Shown here: positions 5,488 to 61,036 of the stretch, one piece after another
Layout: every line of letters starts with the position of its first letter
Position numbering within the stretch: position 1 is the first letter of the stretch
NCBI GenBank assembly: GCA_965248715.1
Contig: CBDFKB010000006.1
Span: 87,871 to 151,870, forward strand
Reading direction: 5' to 3'
DNA length: 64,000 nucleotides
DNA from: Rhizobiaceae bacterium
GTDB lineage: Bacteria; Pseudomonadota; Alphaproteobacteria; Rhizobiales; Rhizobiaceae
The notes under the pieces: generated by a model
What the model was told of the DNA's origin: nothing
Database searches by the model: none
The model's input: only the letters and a program-made list of their open reading frames with translations
Program-made: the position numbers and the translations under genes

Positions 5488-5952
5488 AACATTCCACAGA
5501 TTGAAAATAACTTATTCACATCATGTAGAACTGGCTCATTTTGTCTAGCCGTTTTGTAAGAAAGGCTAGAAGCAATGGGCGAGCATCCAAAATGCGAATT
5601 TTATAGAGATCTGTACCAACATCAGAAAAATTCATAAAATAGTTATAGGGTAAAATTAAATACTATTAATACCAAAATAAGAAATAGTAGTACAAAAATT
5701 TCCGATATTAAAAGACAGATAAATATTACTAATCATGATATTAATGACTTAATAGCAACAAGCCGGTTAAATAAAATCACAATTGTTGCAACTGCGATAT
5801 TAATAAGACAGGCGAAAATTCGACTCGCGCGTCTTGAAGGCAATCTTACAGAAGAGCAATCAAAATTAGCTGGACGGTTCTATTAACCGGAGAATTAGCG
5901 ATGACGGCTTGATTTACTGGTTTTTGGAATTATCGTTTCCCTACGGGGCAAA

Positions 5953-9910: not shown

Positions 9911-9994
9911 TGTCGGTTCTCGGACAAGAATACGCGACAAAACAAATAGATAGAGCACTATTTGCGATTCACAAATGGCGAAAAGTGCGCTAGC
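9911..9994. repeat. mosaic palindromic intergenic repeat (partial module A, spacer, hairpin module B')
   Basis: GCGACAAAACAAATAGATAGAGCACTATTTGCGATTCACAAATGGCGAAAAGTGC is nearly identical to 58218-58275. It ends at GCTAGC. Confidence 0.85.
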
Positions 9995-12066: not shown

Positions 12067-12192
12067 TATGGCTTCCCCGAGCGGTAAGTTGAGCCACTCT
12101 CATAAGGTGGTCTGGGCTGAACGCAAGAGTATTCTTGGATGCGTACCAAGGCAGTGCGATAGTTCTATAGGTGGTTGGAGGTTTTGGGTTCA

Positions 12193-12268
12193 CTTCGTCG
12201 CGCTATCTCTTAGTTTATGCGTGTCATTTTTCCCAAAACCGGTGCCCACTTTTGGGTGACACGCTCTA
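12193..12268. repeat. mosaic palindromic intergenic repeat (half module B, spacer, module A in reverse orientation)
   Basis: CTTCGTCGCGCTATCTCTTAGTTTATGCGTGTCATTTTTCCCAAAACCGGTGCCCACTTTTGGGTGACACGCTCTA matches 33400-33484 and 55296-55367. Confidence 0.85.
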
Positions 12269-14152: not shown

Positions 14153-14189
14153 TAATACCAAGGGAAATTACTATTACGCCTTGGTCTGG
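14153..14189. repeat. collapsed copy of the 26-bp TIR family (full left arm plus short inverted right arm)
   Basis: TAATACCAAGGGAAATTACTATTACG matches TTATACCAAGGGAATTTACTATTGAC at 21/26 positions, followed directly by CCTTGGTCTGG. Sits in a convergent intergenic region. Confidence 0.6.
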
Positions 14190-16239: not shown

Positions 16240-17553
16240 CTACTCCGCCGGCTCCCGCACGCTTGGATTGTTCGGATGCATGGTCCAGTTGGCGTAGTTC
16301 GGGTCGACCTTTTTACCGGTGCGTTTGTCTAGTGCGCCGGGGGCAAGCGGGTCCAAGGAGATGCAATTTTCCACCGGACAGACATTGGCGCACAAATTGC
16401 AACCGACGCATTCTTCTTCGATCACCGTAAATTTGCGTTCCCCATTGCTGTTCATCGAAATTGCCTGGTGCGAGGTATCTTCACAGGCGGCAAAACAGCG
16501 CCCGCACTGGATGCACAGTTCCTGATCGATACTGGCCTTGGCGATGTAATTGAGGTTGAGATATTGCCAGTCGCTGACGTTGGGCACCGCGCGGCCGATG
16601 AAATCGTCCAAGCTATTGTGGCCCTGCTCGTCCATCCAGTTGGAAAGCCCGTCGGTCATTTCGGTCACGATCCTGAAGCCATAGGTCATGGCGGCGGTGC
16701 AAACCTGCACATTGCCGGCACCAAGGGCCATGAATTCGGCCGCATCGCGCCAGGTGGTAACCCCGCCGATGCCGGAGATCGGCAGGCCGGCGGTTTCGGA
16801 ATCACGGGCGATATCGGCCACCATATTGAGCGCAATCGGCTTGACCGCCGGGCCGCAATAGCCGCCATGGGAACCCTTGCCGTCGATCGACGGTTCGGGC
16901 GAAAAATTATCCAGATTGACCGAGGTGATCGATGAGACCGTGTTAATCAGCGATACCGCATCAGCACCACCCGCCTTGGCGGCACGGGCCGGATAGCGGA
17001 TGTCGGTGATATTCGGTGTCAGTTTAACGATCACCGGCATACGAGTGTAGGCCTTGCACCAGCGCGCGACCATCTCGATATATTCCGGCACCTGGCCAAC
17101 CGCCGAACCCATGCCGCGCTCGCTCATGCCATGCGGGCAACCGAAATTAAGTTCGATGCCGTCGGCGCCAGTATCTTCGACCAACGGCAATATCTTTTTC
17201 CACGCCCCCTCCTCACACGGCACCATGATCGAAACTATCATTGCCCGGTCTGGCCAGTCGCGTTTGACCTGCTTGATTTCGCGTAAATTTACATGCAGAT
17301 CGCGGTCGGTGATCAGTTCGATATTGTTGAGGCCCAGCAAACGACGGTCAGCGCCCCAAACCGCGCCGTAGCGCGGGCCGTTGACATTTACTACCGGCGG
17401 ACCCTCCTCGCCAAGGGTCTTCCAAACCACACCGCCCCACCCGGCCTTAAAGGCGCGCACCACATTGTATTCTTTGTCGGTCGGCGGCGCGGACGCGAGC
17501 CAGAACGGGTTCGGCGATTTGATGCCGAGGAAGTTCGAAGCGATATTGGCCAT
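16240..17553 (-). CDS. preA: NAD-dependent dihydropyrimidine dehydrogenase subunit PreA
   Basis: 437 aa. A DHOD-like TIM barrel plus C-terminal 2x[4Fe-4S] motifs (CIQCGRCFAACED..., CVGCNLCANVCPV). Confidence 0.9.
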   Translation of the reverse strand: MANIASNFLGIKSPNPFWLASAPPTDKEYNVVRAFKAGWGGVVWKTLGEEGPPVVNVNGPRYGAVWGADRRLLGLNNIELITDRDLHVNLREIKQVKRDWPDRAMIVSIMVPCEEGAWKKILPLVEDTGADGIELNFGCPHGMSERGMGSAVGQVPEYIEMVARWCKAYTRMPVIVKLTPNITDIRYPARAAKAGGADAVSLINTVSSITSVNLDNFSPEPSIDGKGSHGGYCGPAVKPIALNMVADIARDSETAGLPISGIGGVTTWRDAAEFMALGAGNVQVCTAAMTYGFRIVTEMTDGLSNWMDEQGHNSLDDFIGRAVPNVSDWQYLNLNYIAKASIDQELCIQCGRCFAACEDTSHQAISMNSNGERKFTVIEEECVGCNLCANVCPVENCISLDPLAPGALDKRTGKKVDPNYANWTMHPNNPSVREPAE

Positions 17554-17564
17554 TTGGTCCTCCT

Positions 17565-18030
17565 ATTCCTCATCCGTCATCCTTGGGCTCCGGCCCAAGG
17601 ATCCAGTCTGATGCCTATTTCATACTCGCCACTTGGCCATCCTCAAAACGTTTGACGAAGGTCGGCTGAAACAAATTGTCATGTTCATAGCAGGTCGGGA
17701 AAAGGTCAGCCCAACCGGGATTGAAGTTCTCAATTAGGTTGAGTTTCCATTTTCTTCGATAGAGCTTCAGCGGTTTTTCCCGCTGAATTGCTGTTTCAAT
17801 ATCGTAGTGGCGCTCATACCACACAAGCGTCTTGCAGCCATACTGGCGGGTAAACCCTGGAATATCGCCCTGTTTATGTTCTTGCGCCCGGCGCCAAAGA
17901 TCAGAGGTAACGCCGATATATAGTGTCCCGTTTCGCTTTGAAGCCATAATGTAGACCCAACCCCCCATTTCAAAGCCGCCCGATTACTGGATCCTTGGGC
18001 CGGAGCCCAAGGATGACGGCCGAAATAGGT
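17565..18030 (-). mobile_element. GIY-YIG nuclease cassette 1, bounded by 34-bp hairpin-containing terminal inverted repeats
   Basis: TIRs CCGTCATCCTTGGGCTCCGGCCCAAGGATCCAGT at 17574-17607 and its exact reverse complement at 17986-18019. Each contains the ATCCTTGGGC-N4-GCCCAAGGAT hairpin. Confidence 0.7.
17615..17968 (-). CDS. GIY-YIG nuclease family protein (small stand-alone, COG2827/YhbQ-like)
   Basis: MGGWVYIMASKRNGTLYIGVTSDLWRRAQEHK...KTLVWYERH..IETAIQREKPLKLYRRKWKLNLIE contains the GIY...YIG and catalytic R/E motifs. Confidence 0.9.
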   Translation of the reverse strand: MGGWVYIMASKRNGTLYIGVTSDLWRRAQEHKQGDIPGFTRQYGCKTLVWYERHYDIETAIQREKPLKLYRRKWKLNLIENFNPGWADLFPTCYEHDNLFQPTFVKRFEDGQVASMK

Positions 18031-18111
18031 GTGGCGCGGACGCGAGCCAGAACGGGTTCGGCGATTTGATGCCGAGGAAGTTCGAAGCGATATTGGCCAT
18101 TTGGTCCTCCT

Positions 18112-18577
18112 ATTCCTCATCCGTCATCCTTGGGCTCCGGCCCAAGGATCCAGTCTGATGCCTATTTCATACTTGCCGCTTGGCCATCCTCAAAACGTTT
18201 GACGAAGGTCGGCTGAAACAAATTGTCATGTTCATAGCAGGTCGGGAAAAGGTCAGCCCAACCGGGATTGAAGTTCTCGATTAGGGTGAGTTTCCATTTT
18301 CTTCGATAGAGCTTCAGCGATTTTTCCCGCTGAATTGCTATTTCAATATCGTAGTGGCGCTCATACCACACAAGCGTCTTGCAGCCATATTGGCGGGTAA
18401 ACCCTGGAATATCGCCCTGTTGATGTTCTTGCGCCCGGCGCCAAAGATCAGAGGTAACGCCGATATATAGTGTCCCGTTTCGCTTTGAAGCCATAATGTA
18501 GACCCAGCCCCCCATTTCAAAGCCGCCCGATTAATGGATCCTTGGGCCGGAGCCCAAGGATGACGGCTGAAATAGGT
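18112..18577 (-). mobile_element. GIY-YIG nuclease cassette 2 (same architecture)
   Basis: TIRs at 18121-18154 and 18533-18566 (33/34 match). 547 bp from cassette 1. Confidence 0.7.
18162..18515 (-). CDS. GIY-YIG nuclease family protein, second copy
   Basis: 117 aa with 5 aa differences from copy 1 (K33Q, T58I, P65S, N76T, V113A) and about 9 nt differences in 354 by my count. Confidence 0.9.
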   Translation of the reverse strand: MGGWVYIMASKRNGTLYIGVTSDLWRRAQEHQQGDIPGFTRQYGCKTLVWYERHYDIEIAIQREKSLKLYRRKWKLTLIENFNPGWADLFPTCYEHDNLFQPTFVKRFEDGQAASMK

Positions 18578-18667
18578 GCGGCGCGGACGCGAGCCAGAAC
18601 GGGTTCGGCGATTTGATGCCGAGGAAGTTCGAAGCGATATTGGCCATTTGGTCCTCCTGCGTAAAAC

Positions 18668-21370: not shown

Positions 21371-21899
21371 TCTCGTTGAGCATTTGCGCGCCATGGCCCG
21401 CAACAATCGCTGGGCCAACCACCGGCTGCATGGTGCTTGCGCCGAACTTTCGCCGGCACAATTGAGCGCGCCGCGCATCGGCTTTTTCCCGTCAATCGCA
21501 GCAACCTTGGAGCATATTTTGGTCGTCGACGATTATTATATCGACGCGGTCAAGGAAGCCGGGGTCGGTAAAGCAGTTTACGACAATTTCGAAACTGGCC
21601 GCGCCACCGCTGAACTCAGCGATGCACAACGCCAATCCGACCTGCGGTTGATCCGCTTTTGCGACTGTTTGAGTGACAACGACCCAGCTCGTGTGGTCAC
21701 CACCGACCGCGCTATCGAGGGGAAGGTCAACGAAACCATCGGCGCGCTACTTGCCCATTTGTTCCAGCACCAAATCCACCATCGTGGGCAAGTCCATGCG
21801 ATGTTATCTGGCACCTCCGTCAAGCCTCCGCAGCTCGACGACTTCTTCTTAAACCATGCTCGCGCGCAAGATATCGAGGTAGCCCTGGCGGATTTCTAG
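21363..21899 (+). CDS. DinB family (damage-inducible, four-helix-bundle) protein
   Basis: NNRWANHRL..., LEHILVVDDYY and HLFQHQIHHRGQVHAML provide the His triad typical of DinB_2. Confidence 0.85.
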   Translation: MSDLVEHLRAMARNNRWANHRLHGACAELSPAQLSAPRIGFFPSIAATLEHILVVDDYYIDAVKEAGVGKAVYDNFETGRATAELSDAQRQSDLRLIRFCDCLSDNDPARVVTTDRAIEGKVNETIGALLAHLFQHQIHHRGQVHAMLSGTSVKPPQLDDFFLNHARAQDIEVALADF

Positions 21900-21960
21900 A
21901 GCGTGTCACCCAAAAGTTGGTGCCAGTTTTGGAAAAAGGACACGCATAAACAAAGAGATG
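21896..21960. repeat. mosaic repeat module A (forward), starting at the CTAG that overlaps the dinB stop
   Basis: CTAGAGCGTGTCACCCAAAAGTTGGTGCCAGTTTTGGAAAAAGGACACGCATAAACAAAGAG. Confidence 0.85.
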
Positions 21961-22103
21961 AGTACCTCTAAGAACCCTCGATTTTGTTGGGCTGGGTGTG
22001 ATTTCGAAGTTTTGAGTACCGGATAATATGTTGAAATGTTTGAGGAACGCAGAAACGAAAAATTGCTCCCAGGACCCAAAAGAAGGGTTTTTGGCAGGTG
22101 CTC

Positions 22104-22149
22104 AGATAGCGCGACGAAGCTATTCCAACGCTTGGTGACAAGCGCTAGC
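22104..22149. repeat. mosaic repeat module B, separated from its module A by about 140 bp of unrelated sequence
   Basis: AGATAGCGCGACGAAGCTATTCCAACGCTTGGTGACAAGCGCTAGC. In other copies, modules A and B are only about 15 bp apart. Confidence 0.8.
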
Positions 22150-22978
22150 TAGCGATGGCGCTCCAGAAAAACCGCATTGCCACCAGCAACAGGAAAATTC
22201 CAAACGCCAATTCAACCGTGCGTCGCGGCAGCGCATGCACAGTGCGCACCCCGTATGGCGCGACCAAGATGGTTAGTGGAACGACCAGCGCCACCATCAG
22301 CAAATTGACAAAGCCAATCGAAAACGGTGGCAGGTTGGCGACCCCCCAACCGGCAATCACATAACCGATCAATCCGGGGATCGAGATCAGTATGCCAACC
22401 CCCGAGGAGGTAGCAATTGCCTGGTGCATAGGTCGACCATAAAGGGTCATAAACGTATTGTTGAGCACCCCGCCACCAATACCCATGAAGGTCGACAAAA
22501 ATCCGATCGCCGCACCGGTAACCGATCGCAGCGGGTTGCTGGGAATATCGGTGCCGAGTTGCCAGTTTTCGCGTCCAAGCAGCAATCGGGCAGCTACCGT
22601 AAGCGCCACGCAGGCGAAGATCACCCTTAGCCCCGCGCCCGATACATAGGCGGCAATTGCAGAGGCGACGATGACGCCGATTGGTACCGCAAACATCCAC
22701 TGCTTCAGCAATTGCAGATCGACCGCGCCTTTCGCCTTGTGGGACAAAAATGAACGGATCGATGTGGGTACGATGATCGCCAGGGAAGTGCCGACCGACA
22801 CATGCATGCACACTTCGGTGTCGACCTTGAGACTGATCAACATTTGATAGAATACCGGCACTAATACCGCACCGCCGCCAATACCAAACAGGCCGGCGAG
22901 AAATCCAGCGACAATGCCAGCAATGATGATGCCGATAAGATAGGGCCATAACTCGGCTATCGAGGGCAGGAATTCCAT
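22145..22978 (-). CDS. TauE/SafE family sulfite/anion exporter (TSUP)
   Basis: 277-aa polytopic membrane protein with repeated G-rich TM motifs (GLFGIGGGAVLVP, FMGIGGGVL). Confidence 0.85.
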   Translation of the reverse strand: MEFLPSIAELWPYLIGIIIAGIVAGFLAGLFGIGGGAVLVPVFYQMLISLKVDTEVCMHVSVGTSLAIIVPTSIRSFLSHKAKGAVDLQLLKQWMFAVPIGVIVASAIAAYVSGAGLRVIFACVALTVAARLLLGRENWQLGTDIPSNPLRSVTGAAIGFLSTFMGIGGGVLNNTFMTLYGRPMHQAIATSSGVGILISIPGLIGYVIAGWGVANLPPFSIGFVNLLMVALVVPLTILVAPYGVRTVHALPRRTVELAFGIFLLLVAMRFFWSAIAS

Positions 22979-28782: not shown

Positions 28783-29090
28783 GCGTATTCCCGAAAAGTG
28801 GAAACCGGTTTTCGGATAAGAATGCGCGCATAAACTAAGAGCTAGCGCTACGAAGCGTATCCAACGCTTGGTGACAAGCGCTAAGCGTATTCCCGAAAAG
28901 TGTGTAGCGGTTTTCGGATAAGAATGCGCGACAAAACAAACAGATAGCGCTACGAAGCGTATCCAACGCTTGGTGACATGCGCTATCGCGTATTCCCGAA
29001 AAGTGTGTAGCGGTTTTCGGATAAGAATGCGCGACAAAACAAACAGATAGCGCGACGAAGCTACTCTAACGCTTCGTGACAAGCGCTAGC
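28776..29090. repeat. three tandem units (102, 102 and 111 bp) of the mosaic A-spacer-B palindromic repeat
   Basis: Units start at 28776, 28878 and 28980. Each reads GCGCTAAGCGTATTCCCGAAAAGTG..CGGTTTTCGGATAAGAATGCGCG..AGCGCTACGAAGCGTATCCAACGCTTGGTGACA. Confidence 0.9.
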
Positions 29091-33377: not shown

Positions 33378-33484
33378 GCTAGCGCTTGTCACGAAGCGTT
33401 GGAATAGCTTCGTCGCGCCATCTCTTTATTTATGCCTGTCATTTTCCCCAAAACCGGTGCCCACTTTTGGGTGACACGCTCTAG
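33378..33484. repeat. mosaic palindromic repeat (B-spacer-A, reverse orientation), bounded by CTAG
   Basis: GCTAGCGCTTGTCACGAAGCGTTGGAATAGCTTCGTCGCGCC...CCCAAAACCGGTGCCCACTTTTGGGTGACACGCTCTAG. Confidence 0.9.
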
Positions 33485-33559
33485 ACCGCGCCATCTCGAT
33501 CATTCCGGGGGCCGCGATTGATGCGGCCCCCGAGATTTCTCATTCGAAGTGGTTGCGCC

Positions 33560-40838: not shown

Positions 40839-41867
40839 GTGCGCGCGCTTCAGCTTGTGTCCGAAAGACATGTGGAAGTCAGGGATGTGCCAGCCCCACC
40901 GCCACCCGGCGAAGGCGAGGTGCAGCTAAAAATACGCGTGGTCGCGCTCAACCACATCGATGTGTGGGGTTGGCGTGGCATGGCGTTTGCCAAACGTAAA
41001 TTACCGATGACCGTGGGTGCCGAAGCGAGCGGCGAGATTGCCGCCATCGGCCCCAATGTCACCGGGCTAAAGACCGGACAATTGGTTTCGATTTTTGGCG
41101 GTCCGACCTGCGGGCTGTGCCGGCAATGCCGCCAAGGTCATGACAATTTGTGCGAACAGCCGCTTGGTGTGCACGGATTTCACCTCGATGGGTATGCGCG
41201 CGACCTCGCCAACATGCCAGCTCGCAATTGCGTCCCGGCGCCGCCAGGGGTTGACGCGATCGGCGCGGCGCTGGCCCCGGTCACCTTTGGTACTGTCGAA
41301 CATATGTTGTTCGACAATGCTTTGCTGCAGCCTGGCGAAACCATTCTTATCCATGCTGGCGGCAGCGGTATTGGATCAGCCGCGATCCAGCTTGCCAAAC
41401 GCCATGGTTGTCGGGTGATCACCACCGTTGGCTCCGATGCCAAGATTGATGGCTGCATCGAACTCGGCGCCGACCACGTGATCAATTATCGCGACGACCG
41501 GTTTGAGGGGGTGACCCGCAAGCTGACCCGCAAGAAAGGGGTCGATGTGGTGTTCGAACATGTTGGCGCCGATACGTGGGCCGGTTCCATGCTGTGTATG
41601 AAAAAGGGCGGGCGGTTGGTCACCTGCGGCTCGACCAGTGGGGTTTCGGCCCAGATCAATTTGATGATGCTGTTCCAGCAGCAATTGCGCCTGATCGGCT
41701 CATTTGGCTGCAACCGTCGCAACATGGCCGACGCGATGGAAAAGATGGCACGCGGCCTGGTCAAACCGGTGGTCGACACTGAGCTTGAGTTTGGCGATCT
41801 GGCGAAGGCGCTGGAGCGCATGGAAAACCGTCAAGTGTTCGGCAAAATCGTCATGCACGTAGCGTAA
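40839..41867 (+). CDS. zinc-type alcohol dehydrogenase/quinone oxidoreductase family protein (acpXL-cluster ADH)
   Basis: GAEASGEIAAIGPNV..., HAGGSGIGSAAIQLAK Rossmann motif. I prefer the GTG at 40839, 5 nt after GGAGG. Confidence 0.85.
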   Translation: MRALQLVSERHVEVRDVPAPPPPGEGEVQLKIRVVALNHIDVWGWRGMAFAKRKLPMTVGAEASGEIAAIGPNVTGLKTGQLVSIFGGPTCGLCRQCRQGHDNLCEQPLGVHGFHLDGYARDLANMPARNCVPAPPGVDAIGAALAPVTFGTVEHMLFDNALLQPGETILIHAGGSGIGSAAIQLAKRHGCRVITTVGSDAKIDGCIELGADHVINYRDDRFEGVTRKLTRKKGVDVVFEHVGADTWAGSMLCMKKGGRLVTCGSTSGVSAQINLMMLFQQQLRLIGSFGCNRRNMADAMEKMARGLVKPVVDTELEFGDLAKALERMENRQVFGKIVMHVA

Positions 41868-41903
41868 TACCAAATCGGCCAATATCCAGGTCCTTTGGTA
41901 TAA
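41865..41903. repeat. collapsed copy of the 26-bp TIR family (short left arm plus degenerate full right arm)
   Basis: TAATACCAAA-N17-CCTTTGGTATAA. The right arm GCCAATATCCAGGTCCTTTGGTATAA matches the reverse-complement TIR at 18/26. Ends 18 nt before the lpxXL ATG. Confidence 0.5.
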
Positions 41904-53168: not shown

Positions 53169-54725
53169 TCAGGTAAACGCATCCGGCATCGCTTCCTTTT
53201 TGTGGGCGATATAGGCGGTCAGCGCTTCATCGATCGCTGGATCTAAATCGGGTGCCTGATAGCTGTTTAACCATTCACGGGCGATCCCATTGGCCTTCGC
53301 GGCGGCATTCTTTTCGCCGTCGAGATGCCATTGTTCGAAGGAATTATTGTCCGCAACCTTGGAGACAAAAAACGCGTCCTGGAAATTTGCCTGGGTATGG
53401 GCACAGCCGAGAAAATGGCTGCCCGGCCCGACCTCGCGGATCGCGTCCATGGCCTGGCCGTTTTCCGATAGATCAATGCCTTCGCTTATTTTTTGGTGCG
53501 CCGCCAACTGATCACAATCCATAATGAATTTATCATACGACGACACTAGACCGCCTTCCAGCCAGCCAGCCGAATGCAACATGAAATTGACCCCGCCAAG
53601 CATTGCTGGCCACAGGGTATTTGCGCTTTCATAGGCAGCCTGGGCGTCCGCTACTTTAGAGCCGGTCAGTGAGCCGCCGGACCTAAACGGCAGATTGTAT
53701 CTTCGCGCAAACTGCGCCGCCCCCATCAGCAATTGTCCGGGCTCCGGGGTACCGAACGAGGGTGCGCCGCTTTGCATTGAAATTGCGGTGCCAAAACAAC
53801 CAAGGATCACCGGCGCGCCTGGACGGCACAATTGTGAAAACGCGACTGCTGCCTGTGCTTCCGCTACTACCTGGGTCAAGGTGCCGGCAACGGTCACCGG
53901 CGACATTGCCCCGCCGACGATAAACGGCGACAAGATGCAGGCCTGGCCGGCACGGGCATAAACCTTCATCGCCCCCAGCATGGTCCCATCCATCACCAGG
54001 GGCGAATTGATGTTGATCAAATTGGTAACAACGCAATTGTCGGCGACGAAATCCTTGCCGAACAAAATTTCCGCCATTTCTACTGTGTCAGCGGCGCGCT
54101 CCGGCGCGGTTACCGATCCCATGAATGGTTTGTCGGAATAACGAATGTGCGAATACACCATGTCGAGGTGGCGCTTGTTGACTGCAACGTCGACCGGCTC
54201 GCAAACCGTGCCACCGGAATGGTGCATCGCCGGCGCCATGTAGGCCAGCTTCACGAAATTACGGAAATCCTCAATGGTCGCATAGCGCCGTTCACCTTCC
54301 AGATCGCGCACGAAGGGCGGACCGTAAACCGGCGCGAACACGGTCGCCTTGCCGCCGATTTCGACAGACCGCTGCGGATTGCGCGCATGCTGGGTAAAGG
54401 TTGGTGGCGCGGTTTTCATCAATTCACGGCAAAGACCCTTGGAAAAACGCACCCGCTCGCCTTGGACATCAGCGCCGGCAGCCTTCCACATCTCGAGCGC
54501 TTCCGCATCGTCACGAAATTCGATGCCGATTTCCTCAAGCAAAATATCAGCATTTGCCTCAATCAATCCCATACCTTCCTCATCCAACACATTGGTTGGC
54601 TCCACCTTGCGGCGGATATAGGTAAAAACATTGAGCTTTTGACTGGCCCGGTTTTGCCTGCGCGCCTCGGCACCGCCGCCGCCACGTCGCCCCCGGCGAC
54701 CTGTTTCTGCTTCTTGTTCGCTCAT
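53169..54725 (-). CDS. trimethylamine methyltransferase (MttB) superfamily protein, non-pyrrolysine type (quaternary-amine:corrinoid methyltransferase)
   Basis: MttB-family sequence throughout with no in-frame TAG. I prefer the second ATG of ATGATG at 54725, with GGAG 6 nt upstream. The track ORF extends to 54920. Confidence 0.85.
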   Translation of the reverse strand: MSEQEAETGRRGRRGGGGAEARRQNRASQKLNVFTYIRRKVEPTNVLDEEGMGLIEANADILLEEIGIEFRDDAEALEMWKAAGADVQGERVRFSKGLCRELMKTAPPTFTQHARNPQRSVEIGGKATVFAPVYGPPFVRDLEGERRYATIEDFRNFVKLAYMAPAMHHSGGTVCEPVDVAVNKRHLDMVYSHIRYSDKPFMGSVTAPERAADTVEMAEILFGKDFVADNCVVTNLININSPLVMDGTMLGAMKVYARAGQACILSPFIVGGAMSPVTVAGTLTQVVAEAQAAVAFSQLCRPGAPVILGCFGTAISMQSGAPSFGTPEPGQLLMGAAQFARRYNLPFRSGGSLTGSKVADAQAAYESANTLWPAMLGGVNFMLHSAGWLEGGLVSSYDKFIMDCDQLAAHQKISEGIDLSENGQAMDAIREVGPGSHFLGCAHTQANFQDAFFVSKVADNNSFEQWHLDGEKNAAAKANGIAREWLNSYQAPDLDPAIDEALTAYIAHKKEAMPDAFT

Positions 54726-55176
54726 CATCTGCTCCAACAATATCACCGGCGCACCCTGATCGGGCATACAATAATCTGTAAGTATATTTGTACTCGCCGA
54801 CCGGTACGGACTATCACCACAGGCAATGGGCAACGGACTGCCTGCTTGCGTCCCACGTTGACGCAATTCCGACAAGCACGGCTTGTGGCCGAACCCCGGG
54901 CCACCAACAATGTGGATCAAATTTATCTTGGGCCAGCAATATCACGAATTTGGGTCGCAATTATACCAAGGGAATTTACTATTGACTTTATTGACCGCCG
55001 CGATTTTTCAACGCACTCCAACCTCTCGTGGTGGAGCAAACCGGCCGACTAAAGGCGCTTTTCCACCCGATTTCGGGCACCGAAAAGCGCCCTGTGCGTG
55101 GGTTTTAAACCGGTGATTATCGCAAAACCACGGTGCTGGTTTTTGCCCATACGTTTCCAACGTCGTTGCAAGATTT

Positions 55177-55241
55177 GCCCAATACCCGGACCCGATACCC
55201 TGGCCCAATACCCTGGCCCAATACCCTGGCCCAATACCCGG
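55177..55241. repeat. 13-bp tandem repeat x5 (GCCCAATACCCTG)
   Basis: GCCCAATACCCGG ACCCGATACCCTG GCCCAATACCCTG GCCCAATACCCTG GCCCAATACCCGG. The paralogous element at 60.6 kb has a single unit. Confidence 0.9.
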
Positions 55242-55262
55242 GCATCGCGCTGGGTTTTGCAC

Positions 55263-55367
55263 CTAGCGCTTGTCACGAAGCGTTGGGATAGCTTCGTCGC
55301 GCGATCTCTTTGTTTATGTGTGTCATTTTTCCCAAAACCGGTACCCACTTTTCGGGAATACACGCTC
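55263..55367. repeat. mosaic palindromic repeat (B-spacer-A, reverse) nested inside MITE-like element 1 at a CTAG
   Basis: CTAGCGCTTGTCACGAAGCGTTGGGATAGCTTCGTCGCGCG...CCCAAAACCGGTACCCACTTTTCGGGAATACACGCTC. Absent from the homologous position (CTAG at 60578-60581) of element 2. Confidence 0.85.
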
Positions 55368-55591
55368 TCGCCGGATCAACCGGTTTGCCTCCATCAAATA
55401 GGTCAATAGTAAATTCCCTTGGTATAAGTACAATCCCACACCAAAGCCGGTCATTTGCGGCTGCATCAGGTGTGCTGCCAATTTCTGCACGAGATCAGCC
55501 CAATTTTCATAAAATCATAACCAATTATAGCGATTACTTATTAATGCTGGTGAATTTGCCTATATTTTGGATTTTGTGGACCTCTTGAAAA

Positions 55592-58177
<2,586 letters not shown>

Positions 58178-58180
<3 letters not shown>

Positions 58181-58280
58181 AGCACAATCTGAAAAGTGGT
58201 GGCCTGCTTTCAGAAAAATTGTGCGACAAAACAAATAGATAGAGCACTATTTGCGATTCACAAATCGCGAAAAGTGCTTG
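58178..58280. repeat. mosaic repeat (variant module A', spacer, hairpin B') abutting the IS110 left end
   Basis: CTAGAGCACAATCTGAAAAGTGGTGGCCTGCTTTCAGAAAAATTGTGCGACAAAACAAATAGATAGAGCACTATTTGCGATTCACAAATCGCGAAAAGTGC. The B' hairpin lacks the terminal CTAGC seen in the copy at 9990. Confidence 0.85.
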
Positions 58281-58289
58281 TCTTATGAT

Positions 58290-58480
58290 TTTCCGTGTTG
58301 TTCGGGCATACTTGGTTCCGCCGCGGGGAGGCCCACCTCCCTTGCGGCGGCGAGGGATGGATCGTGAAAGTGCTGGCCGTTTTACGGGCCGAGCTAGAGT
58401 ATGATCACCCTCGTCTTTTCCAATGGCCTGAATGGATACCAGGGCATGAAGGCCCGCATGACAAGCAAAGGCGCGGAAAA
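58290..58480 (+). ncRNA. candidate IS110 bridge (seeker) RNA in the 5' non-coding end
   Basis: Position upstream of the recombinase, as in IS110-group elements. Strong hairpin CCGCCGC-GGGGAGG-CCCA-CCTCCC-TT-GCGGCGG at 58318-58350 and a second stem GGCCGTTTTACGGGCC. No covariance model was run. Confidence 0.35.
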
Positions 58481-58481
58481 G

Positions 58482-59420
58482 ATGACACAATCTACCATCG
58501 GCGTGGACATTTCGAAAGAGACTTTGGACGTTCATCGCCATCCCGAAGGCAAGCATCGCCAGTTCACCAACAATCCACAAGGTTTTCGATGCCTGGTCAA
58601 ATGGCTGGGCAAGGAGCCTGTCTCCCGAATTGTTTTCGAGGCAACCGGTCCTTATCACCGCGCCTTTGAGCGTGCGTTGAGCCGGGCTGACCTGCCTCTG
58701 GCCAAGATCAATCCTCTCCATGCCAAGCGGTTTGGCCAGGCGCTTGGTCAACTGGCCAAGACGGATAAGATGGATGCCGCCCTGTTGGCACGCTTCGGCG
58801 TTGCCATCGAACCCCGGACACGCCCGGCTGTGCCGCAGATCCTGTGTAATCTCAAGGATATGCATGTCGCCCGCATAGCTCTCATCAAGGACCGGACCGC
58901 CGCCAAGAACCGTCAGAAAAACCTTTGCGTGACGATCCTCAAACGTCAAGTCGAACAGCGCTTGAAGCAGATCGAAGAACACTTGGCCCAGATCGAGAAG
59001 GCAATCATGGACATCATCAAAAACGACCCCACACTAGCCGCAAGGTTCACTATCTTGACAAGCATTCCCGGTGTCGCTGAGCGTTCCGCGATGGCGTTGC
59101 TCATCGACATGCCCGAGCTCGGCACCTTGAACAGCCAGACTGCGGCCGGTCTGTCCGGCACGGCCCCAATGCTACGACAGTCCGGAAAACGAAAAGGACA
59201 GGCCTTCGTTCAAGGTGGTCGTTCGCACGTGCGCCAGGCGCTCTATATGCCGGCGCTCGTGGCAACCCGGTTCAATCCAGATATGAAGGCCAAATATGAT
59301 CAGCTCAAAGCAGCAGGAAAACCGTCAAAAGTCGCCATAACCGCTGTCATGCGAAAACTCATCGTACTCGCAAACGCCCTCCTAAGGGATCAACGAATGT
59401 GGAGCAAAAACATCGCTTGA
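58482..59420 (+). CDS. IS110 family transposase/recombinase (DEDD_Tnp_IS110 + Transposase_20)
   Basis: MTQSTIGVDISKETLDVH...IVFEATGPYH...AKTDKMDAALLARF...LTSIPGVAERSAMALL...RQALYMPALVA. Confidence 0.9.
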   Translation: MTQSTIGVDISKETLDVHRHPEGKHRQFTNNPQGFRCLVKWLGKEPVSRIVFEATGPYHRAFERALSRADLPLAKINPLHAKRFGQALGQLAKTDKMDAALLARFGVAIEPRTRPAVPQILCNLKDMHVARIALIKDRTAAKNRQKNLCVTILKRQVEQRLKQIEEHLAQIEKAIMDIIKNDPTLAARFTILTSIPGVAERSAMALLIDMPELGTLNSQTAAGLSGTAPMLRQSGKRKGQAFVQGGRSHVRQALYMPALVATRFNPDMKAKYDQLKAAGKPSKVAITAVMRKLIVLANALLRDQRMWSKNIA

Positions 59421-59463
59421 TTAATACGGATACTCTAAGCCTGTGGGCAATTAAGTTTGATTT

Positions 59464-59517
59464 GGCGCATCTTCTTATCCGAAAACCGCACCACACTTTC
59501 CGGGAATACACTCTAGC
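59464..59517. repeat. mosaic repeat module A (reverse) abutting the IS110 right end
   Basis: GGCGCATCTTCTTATCCGAAAACCGCACCACACTTTCCGGGAATACACTCTAGC. Confidence 0.85.
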
Positions 59518-59527
59518 GATCCATCAT

Positions 59528-60022
59528 TCAGTCGGCGTCAACGAAACTGATGAATACCGCATTGGTAAAGCCAACTACCGGCTTTCCATCTTGATTTTCG
59601 CCGCCCGCCGATCCGCTCATGATATGCCAACCGGTCTTTGATTGCGACGCCCGTACCGCGCCGACCTGATACCAATAACTGATCGTATCTCCGGCATAGA
59701 CCGGGCGGAACCATTTCAAGTCACGAATGCCCGGTGCAGGGCCAAATTCGACCGGTATTTCGCCGGCAGCGCGCGCCGCCTCTTGTAATCGAACCAATTC
59801 GGCCGCCTGCAACCCCATCCACACCGCCGTGGTGTGCCAGCCGGATGCGCACAGCGCCCCATAAAGGCTGTTTCTTGCTGCCTCGGCATCGAGGTGAAAG
59901 GGCTGCGGATCAAACTTTTCGGCGAAGCAAATAATCTCTTCGGCGGTGAAATCGTGGGAACCAAGTTCCTGGCGCGCTCCAGGTTTGAGTGCATCACGCA
60001 TCGGGGTTGGTGAGCGGTTCAT
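59528..60022 (-). CDS. MaoC-like (hotdog fold) dehydratase
   Basis: FAEKFDPQPFHLDAEAA motif. 164 aa. Confidence 0.8.
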   Translation of the reverse strand: MNRSPTPMRDALKPGARQELGSHDFTAEEIICFAEKFDPQPFHLDAEAARNSLYGALCASGWHTTAVWMGLQAAELVRLQEAARAAGEIPVEFGPAPGIRDLKWFRPVYAGDTISYWYQVGAVRASQSKTGWHIMSGSAGGENQDGKPVVGFTNAVFISFVDAD

Positions 60023-60489
60023 CGCGAAATTTCCCCGGCGCTCGCATCCAAAATACGGTAGTAACCGGAGCCACGGGATCCGTAGACCTGATTGCCGTGC
60101 TGGTTAAACACCTCGTGACGCATGCCAACAATGCCAAGTTCGGGTCTGGAACGCGACACCCGTTTAGATTCGACAATGGTATGGCCGACCAACACATCAC
60201 CAGGCCGCACCGGATAAAGCCAATTCATTTCGTCGAGACCGGGCGCGCCCTGAGAACTCGATCCGGAAATGAAAGCATCGCACAGCATGCGCATGACGAT
60301 CGCTGCAACATGCCACCCGGACGCCGCCAGGCCGCCAAGCATGGTAGCCTTTGCAGCCTGGTCGTCGAGATGAAAGGGTTGCGGATCAAATTCGCGGGCA
60401 AACTCAAGGATTGCTTCGCGGCTGACCGTGTAGGGCCCGAGCACAATGCGGTGGCCGACTTCGAGTTGGTATATATCCATCATTACCAC
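60019..60489 (-). CDS. MaoC-like (hotdog fold) dehydratase, tandem paralogue
   Basis: FAREFDPQPFHLDDQAA motif. 4-bp overlap with the downstream paralogue. Confidence 0.8.
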   Translation of the reverse strand: MVMMDIYQLEVGHRIVLGPYTVSREAILEFAREFDPQPFHLDDQAAKATMLGGLAASGWHVAAIVMRMLCDAFISGSSSQGAPGLDEMNWLYPVRPGDVLVGHTIVESKRVSRSRPELGIVGMRHEVFNQHGNQVYGSRGSGYYRILDASAGEISR

Positions 60490-60520
60490 AGCCCCAAACG
60501 GTTTTTCCTAACCCAATTCC

Positions 60521-60825
60521 TTATACCAAGGGAATTTAATATTGACTCATTTGATGGATGCAAACCGGTTCATCCGGCTAGACGCAAAGCGCGGCGCGAT
60601 GCCGGGGTATCGGGCAAGCTTTGTAACGACGCCCGGTGGGCCGGTTTGCTCCACCATGAAAGGTTGGAGTACGTTGAAAAAGCCACAATATGGCCGCGCG
60701 ATTTTGGCCCCTGACGTTGTTGGAACCCGCTTATGGTGGGGTCCGTACCATGGCGCGGTCTTCGCCTAGTCAGCGAACAAAATCGCGGTGGTCAAATGGG
60801 TCAATATTAAGTTCCCTTGGTATTA
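60521..60825. mobile_element. MITE-like element copy 2 (305 bp), 24/26 TIRs, inverted relative to copy 1
   Basis: TTATACCAAGGGAATTTAATATTGAC at 60521-60546 versus GTCAATATTAAGTTCCCTTGGTATTA at 60800-60825. Internal blocks (e.g. GGCCGGTTTGCTCCACCATGAAAGGTTGGAGTACGTTGAAAAA) match the reverse complement of 55003-55050. Confidence 0.7.
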
Positions 60826-61036
60826 CACCAACGGTGGCTGATATCGACCTATTGAGCCACTGTTGGTATTATCCTTTTGATCAAGCCATCAAAAGCAAAA
60901 TGCCTCAAGCGTTAACCATGCTGACAACCGATCAATGCCCGACCATTGAGTTGTGGTTAATATGAAGTTACGAATTTCCGTCCGCGACCAGGGAGATGCT
61001 TGCCTAACAGTCTTGCAACCTGGGGCTACGGTGACA

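Follow-up and report, generated by a model that had tools for sequence, protein, structure and literature searches.

A dispersed family of terminal-inverted-repeat elements in a Rhizobiaceae-like genome, probably of the miniature inverted-repeat transposable element type

Organization of the locus

We have analysed a stretch of 64,000 nucleotides of contig CBDFKB010000006.1 (positions 87,871 to 151,870) from a Rhizobiaceae bacterium, called the window throughout, with respect to a family of intergenic elements bounded by 26-bp terminal inverted repeats (TIRs). Two full-length elements are present in the window, copy 1 next to mttB and a hybrid histidine kinase gene, and copy 2 next to a maoC gene and a patatin gene (Table 1). 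Our analysis reveals that the element family is real, dispersed and lineage-restricted, and it suggests, with a probability of about 0.75, that the family is a non-autonomous terminal-inverted-repeat transposable element, known as a MITE (for miniature inverted-repeat transposable element), represented here by decayed copies.

The 26-mer TTATACCAAGGGAATTTACTATTGAC and its reverse complement bound copy 1 without a mismatch at either site, exactly as an earlier, sequence-only reading of this DNA had reported. That reading also described a second pair enclosing 305 bp, for which the forward match of 25/26 stands (one mismatch), while the reverse one, given as 24/26, carries three mismatches and is in fact 23/26. 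Chance matches to the 26-mer are expected at 0.00 in shuffled sequences, and the core TWATACCAA occurs nine times in the window against 0.29 expected. Not every terminus reads ...GGTATAA, as had been proposed, the tip of copy 2 at its right end being GGTATTA. The immediate flanks are TTA and TAA for copy 1, and TTA and TTA for copy 2.

Pairwise blastn of copy 1 (forward strand) with copy 2 (reverse strand) aligns them colinearly in five blocks of 81–91% identity, which include TTGACCGCCGCGATTTT / TTGACCACCGCGATTTT and CTCCAACCT...GCAAACCGGCC, and this bears out the earlier statement that the two are homologous but inverted relative to each other. The additions described for copy 1, namely the expansion of a 13-mer, a nested mosaic repeat at a CTAG and about 110 bp of extra sequence, are likewise all present, and copy 2 contains about 98 bp that are absent from copy 1. 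The mosaic repeat starts at the CTAG of copy 1, whose counterpart in copy 2 (60578-60581) is unoccupied; other copies of this repeat are located in the window at 12164, 33379, 28783-29088 and 22103. Across the family the element size is 263–305 bp, or 467 bp with secondary insertions. An open reading frame (ORF) at 60690-60965, which starts inside copy 2 and was the one ORF tested, has no Pfam match.

Three further window loci keep one arm together with a short inverted arm. Two of these, at 14153-14189 and 41865-41903, had been recognized before as collapsed versions, and both are found in the gene contexts claimed for them: the former sits between convergent AraC-type and EamA genes, and the latter ends 18 nt upstream of the start of an lpxXL-type acyltransferase gene. 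The third, a mini-element at 60823, looks like an insertion into the TTA that terminates copy 2. End-like sites at 5667 and 9395 were considered as family members and rejected as chance (an AT-rich stretch and a 65% match).

Table 1. Elements of the 26-mer family in the window and their component features.
Feature	Position	Strand	Remarks
Copy 1, 467 bp	54961..55427	+	Between mttB (-) and hybrid histidine kinase gene (+); enlarged by secondary events
Copy 1 left TIR	54961..54986	+	Inward subterminal ..ATTGACC, 'A'-type end
Copy 1 right TIR	55402..55427	-	Inward ..ATTTGATGG, 'B'-type end
Sequence private to copy 1, ~110 bp	55050..55160		Unique in window; holds GGCGCTTTTC...GAAAAGCGCC hairpin
Tandem expansion of 13-mer GCCCAATACCCTG, 5.2 copies	55177..55243		Single-copy in copy 2
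Nested mosaic intergenic repeat, 104 nt	55263..55366		At CTAG of copy 1; repeat families D3, I2, I6, I11, I15
Copy 2, 305 bp	60521..60825	-	Between maoC (-, start 60483) and patatin gene (+); inverted relative to copy 1
Copy 2 TIR, 25/26	60521..60546	+	38 bp from maoC ATG
Copy 2 TIR, 23/26	60800..60825	-	Tip GGTATTA
Mini-element TTA-CACCAACGGTGGCT...AGCCACTGTTGGTA-TTA	60823..60871		Adjoins copy 2; terminal TTA common to both
Collapsed element TAA-TACCAAA...TTTGGTA-TAA	41865..41903		Family D14; left TAA serves as stop codon for the Zn-ADH (zinc-dependent alcohol dehydrogenase) gene
Collapsed remnant, 21/26 of one arm plus short CCTTGGT inverted arm	14153..14189		nhmmer E = 4.5e-5

Occurrence in a second genome

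An exact scan for the end motif, using one genome per species and covering 185,579 species, found it in one other genome only, a Rhizobiaceae metagenome-assembled genome (MAG; CBDFIN01), where it is present in seven stretches. This MAG contains three full elements of 267, 275 and 263 bp, in addition to a 55-bp collapsed copy, a second and degenerate collapsed copy, one 5'-truncated copy, one solo end and one further copy that is cut by the end of the stretch examined. The MAG elements neighbour genes for LysE and a choline kinase-like protein, ClpP and a serine hydrolase, Lon, DctM and solute-binding proteins, and these genes are unrelated to the neighbour genes in the window. When 56 kb of MAG sequence was compared with the window by blastn, the only matches were element termini, 24–45 bp long at 86–96% identity. 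Dispersed loci number five in the window and seven stretches in the MAG. The sequence-only reading had named confinement of the 26-mer to the window loci, with conserved positions, as the outcome that would speak for a regulator operator; what is found is a family at unrelated loci in the MAG.

Six metagenome contigs match the end motif, all at single sites in low-GC contigs; five of the six matches are embedded in unbroken sequence and have no second end close by, and the matches are taken as chance. Viral contigs gave no match and plasmids gave only chance matches to the ends. In the literature, the terminal 12-mer matched unrelated eukaryotic primers only, and our literature search found no paper describing a Rhizobiaceae MITE of this kind. 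The lineage of the window is sparsely sampled, the best protein identities being 45% for the kinase, 64% for the patatin and 68% for LpxXL.

On MAG contig_10, the copies L006 (2972-3234) and L005 (605-879) flank lon-clpX-clpP in direct orientation and are 5.4 kb apart; the ClpP ORF spans the junction of these two adjacent stretches. In the window, copies 1 and 2 are 5.1 kb apart, and such an arrangement may reflect local hopping.

Conserved ends and diverged interiors

The consensus of 14 good termini is TnATACCAAGGGAAnTTAaTATTGACynATwTGA. Its outer 12 bp, ATACCAAGGGAA, are invariant in 14/14 termini, and the 26-bp inverted repeat extends as a shared terminal consensus to about 35 bp. In the window and in the MAG alike, each element has one end reading ..TGACC and another reading ..TGATGG. 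This difference makes the element polar, as transposons are with their left and right ends. The interiors are 80–85% identical among the MAG copies and about 62–70% identical between the genomes in pairwise blastn, whereas the termini are 86–96% identical between the genomes. A multiple alignment had suggested that the interiors of the two genomes are unrelated, but this was overturned by the more sensitive pairwise comparison. The termini are thus conserved far above the interiors, indicating that the ends are the constrained part of the element. Invariant ends combined with diverged interiors are what recognition by a trans-acting protein would predict.

Self-complementarity of the elements is strong, with single-strand fold z scores of -8.1 (copy 2) and -10.0. 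However, no Rfam family matches the elements even at E <= 1. Of 103 pairs predicted for the three MAG copies, only one has changed in a compensatory way and many are disrupted, and the covariation term is unfavourable. The fold looks like a by-product of palindromic DNA and not like a selected RNA.

Flanking triplets and probable insertion

The form TNA-[T/C]ACCAA...TTGGTA-TNA is common to all eight paired elements, and no such pair is found in shuffled sequences. In six of the eight, the left and right triplets are identical (TTA/TTA in four and TAA/TAA in two), so that a direct repeat stands beside perfectly inverted positions. This arrangement suggests that the T-N-A flanks are a 3-bp target duplication and not a part of the inverted repeat. 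Two insertions make use of stop codons, namely the TAA of the Zn-ADH gene at the 41865 element and the reverse-strand TTA of the DctM gene at the L007 copy.

Spacer lengths in relatives serve as proxies for insertion. In the acpXL cluster, the spacer between the Zn-ADH gene and lpxXL measures 14, 27 and 16 nt in three relatives but 54 nt in the window, and removal of the 33-bp element together with one TAA reduces the window junction to 18 nt and leaves the GGAGAG ribosome-binding site intact. Similarly, two relatives that keep the maoC-maoC/patatin gene order have spacers of 262 and 308 bp, compared with about 565 bp in the window when the patatin start is inferred from alignment with a homologue; the excess is close to copy 2 plus the mini-element. 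These shorter spacers, compared as lengths and not as aligned empty sites, support insertion.

Nature of the family

The ends, dispersal, polarity, flanks and decay products of the family are observed directly. The MITE-like interpretation that the sequence-only reading had put forward gains from the unrelated loci in the second genome, from the ends being more conserved than the interiors, from the T-N-A flanks and from the shorter spacers in relatives. The basic unit is a gene-less segment of about 265–305 bp, in which a T-N-A triplet at each end is followed by the terminal consensus given above from its TACCAAGGG onwards. A DDE-type transposase encoded elsewhere in the genome would bind both ends in trans, excise the element and paste it into a T-N-A triplet, which would be duplicated in the process; such a triplet would often belong to an intergenic site or serve as a stop codon (TAA or TGA). 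The transposase itself, its cut-and-paste chemistry and the exactness of the duplication are parts that we infer. Copies decay in place, as seen in copy 1, where the 13-mer has expanded and a nested mosaic repeat and further sequence have been gained. As side effects, an element could form a long hairpin if transcribed, and promoters of neighbouring genes could be displaced or replaced.

Several observations weigh against a transposable element of this type. A parent element with the same ends, which the earlier reading had advised looking for, was not found in the window, the MAG stretches, the plasmids or the metagenome and viral contigs; many accepted bacterial MITEs likewise have no known partner. 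The known copy number is low (two full and three mini copies in 64 kb, and about eight ends in the MAG), and divergence among the copies is 15–20%, which may mean that the family has ceased to be active. The identity of six of the eight triplet pairs, with N limited to A or T, has a p of about 0.14 and is not significant alone, and the flanks could still reflect a TA duplication within a T-N-A-preferring target. Among the syntenic relatives (62–68% protein identity) no empty site is alignable. Exact look-ups of two window proteins returned no record of a close strain in which presence or absence could be compared, and the nearest sampled relatives are only 45–68% identical in protein.

It has also to be considered that the ends are kept by host-level selection, since the outward sequence TGGTAT-N-A-x resembles an extended -10 that could drive the neighbouring genes and make the element a portable promoter or regulatory cassette; we regard this explanation as unlikely. 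By our own classification of the genes, divergent genes flank four of the five full-length elements, so that 8/10 termini face gene starts, but one full copy, the truncated L001 copy and the collapsed copy at 14153 are situated between convergent genes, and the L007 copy adjoins the 3' end of a gene. Only two termini have a full TATAAT and form TGGTATAAT, namely the one of copy 1 that faces mttB and the right one of L003. In the hexamer TAT-N-A-x the central base is the variable N, and the last T is derived from the flank and is present at 5/15 termini, which is about the expectation from base composition. The last T of the sigma-70 -10 hexamer is essential. The termini are not accompanied by a -35. 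In a consensus promoter scan, all four 26-mer termini went without a call, and the only terminus called was that of the mini-element on the patatin side, as TCGACC-17-TATTAT preceded by an upstream TG. At lpxXL, transcription starting 7 nt past the box would land inside the Shine-Dalgarno sequence. Correia elements are known to complete a -10 at their junctions (PMC2649163), which lends the idea of junction promoters a precedent (PMC2649163, PMC10969869); however, recognition by a transposase explains the invariant ends equally well. Promoter activity of the termini is thus a conjecture for which the sequence speaks weakly. Between copy 2 and the maoC ATG there are 38 bp, which leaves little space for a native promoter, and transcription of maoC must therefore begin in the element or pass through it; it is plausible that copy 2 affects maoC expression. 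More broadly, we give a rather low probability to the view that the 12 invariant bases are kept for a host function, as a promoter or a protein-binding site, or that ends with TACCAAGGGAA and a TNA target define an undescribed transposase group, the latter being proposed because no insertion sequence (IS) end type could be matched to the ends. If the host-function view were true, the termini would now control maoC (38 bp away), mttB, the kinase gene and the patatin gene.

The strong self-complementarity (z = -8 and -10), the intergenic positions and the short hairpin versions, along with a weak dyad within the 26-mer (ATAcCAA-N6-TTaaTAT), could also be accounted for by non-mobile host palindromes, that is, host protein sites or substrates of a REP-associated tyrosine transposase (RAYT) similar to repetitive extragenic palindromic (REP) sequences and REPINs. 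We consider this improbable because the ends have neither a GTAG nor a CGTC tag (criterion in PMC3733652), the A and B end types are consistent, the TNA flanks behave as duplications, the units of 260–470 bp are far above REP doublets, and no consistent gene association is seen. Among the Pfam-scanned flanking ORFs the only transposase is of the IS110 family, and no search was aimed at RAYT genes. It is highly improbable that the elements are duplicated genes for structured non-coding RNAs or cis-regulatory leaders: the predicted folds are very stable and most copies are upstream of genes, but there is no Rfam match, only 1/103 pairs is compensatory, copies are oriented either way with respect to the genes beside them, their interiors gave no promoter or terminator calls, and conservation sits in the DNA ends and not in the interior.

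Two other interpretations were rejected. A composite transposon spanning 54961-60825, with the kinase, the IS110 element and the maoC genes as its cargo, does not agree with the maoC-maoC/patatin order, which is ancestral in relatives without the elements. A regulator operator does not agree with neighbour genes that differ in every case and interiors that are homologous.

If the elements are MITEs, they form a previously undescribed family from a sparsely sampled, Rhizobiaceae-like lineage. For annotation, the family accounts for long intergenic regions, spurious ORFs and hairpins beside stop codons, and it may serve as a strain marker. It also records insertion into stop-codon TNA triplets followed by stepwise decay through nesting, minisatellite growth and collapse to hairpins.

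Other repeats and genes in the window

The ORF of the IS110-family (DEDD) transposase at 58401-59420 is located inside a split mosaic repeat (left half 58180-58277, right half 59455-59518). The IS110 family is known to target repeated palindromic sequences, and the split repeat fits this preference. A link between this transposase and the 26-mer family was examined and rejected, as its flanks are the halves of another mosaic repeat and have no similarity to the 26-mer. Both halves give weak Rfam matches to the Brucella small RNA CI408. The mosaic repeat family, with units of about 100 nt, is distinct from the 26-mer family and occurs at 12164-12267, 21895-22153, 28783-29088 (three tandem copies), 33379-33485, 55263-55366, 59455-59518 and 9934-9988; its modules include ...GCGCTTGTCACGAAGCG... 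and ...CCGAAAAGTGGGTACCGGTTTTGGGAAA.... At 17484-18658 the window contains a 547-bp tandem unit with 98–100% identity and perfect inverted repeats of 34–36 bp (CCGTCATCCTTGGGCTCCGGCCCAAGGATCCAGT).

The gene at 55592-58180 encodes a hybrid PAS histidine kinase/response regulator. In a search of 5.8 billion proteins, its best homologue covering most of the length is 45% identical, and one 53%-identical match covers less than half of the query. The segment comprising copy 1, the kinase gene and the IS110 element interrupts the MTHFR/Virulence_fact/maoC order of relatives. On the other side of copy 1, Rfam PYLIS_3 (pyrrolysine insertion sequence, mttB) matches 53570-53669 on the reverse strand with a score of 39.2 bits (gathering score 38). 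The match is inside an uninterrupted mttB ORF of 583 codons with no in-frame stop, and is therefore probably due to homology of the coding sequence rather than to recoding. The region upstream of the patatin gene contains a conserved GTTAACCATG(GTTAAC)-like palindrome, at 60911-60920 of the window and, in two relatives, at about 3893-3910 of L014 and at about 3891-3906 of L016; it lies outside the inserted element and is likely to be a native element, either operator or promoter.

Relation to known repeat families

REPs are 20–40 bp long and are tagged at one end by GTAG or CGTC (PMC3733652). The elements described here resemble REPs and REPINs as intergenic palindromic repeats that form inverted doublets, but differ from them in having neither tag, in their TNA flanks and in their long asymmetric interior. 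The internal minisatellite of the BrickBuilt MITE of Porphyromonas gingivalis (PMC4596501) is comparable to the 5.2 copies of the 13-mer in copy 1; however, sequence and host are unrelated, and the expansion is found in only one copy here.

The IS1031 group of IS5 inserts at 5'-TNA-3' and exclusively generates a 3-bp direct repeat (PMC12016507), with which the T-N-A flanks are consistent. Ends of this group start with GA or GAG, an example being GAACCTG in ISLrh (PMC12016507), whereas the ends here start with TACCAAGGG. The DDE transposase of the group is produced through frameshifting, and there is no transposase here to compare with it. Since the ends start with TACC and not with GA/GAG, we do not assign the family to the IS1031 group.

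Correia elements (CREE or NEMIS) of Neisseria duplicate TA, whereas the flanks here are T-N-A. The two families are alike in being gene-less and intergenic, in having 26-bp inverted ends with a directional core and in forming short and long classes. Correia elements also resemble the present family in carrying a partial -10 at the tip, which some insertions complete, and in forming a hairpin if transcribed (PMC2649163, PMC10969869). The ends here have no sequence similarity to theirs and contain no -35, the units are 265–305 bp compared with 105–157 bp, and the known copies are a handful compared with 100–250. Working junction promoters, an IHF site and cleavage by RNase III also belong to the Correia type; for the present family the comparison covers the resemblance of the termini to a -10. 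The Correia repeat is a 26-bp sequence with a characteristic core that is found only in Neisseria (PMC2649163); the ends here do not match it and the host is a Rhizobiaceae-like alphaproteobacterium. If the termini of the present family do initiate transcription, they would provide a second case of Correia-like promoter delivery, this time in an alphaproteobacterium, which would be of moderate interest for regulatory evolution.

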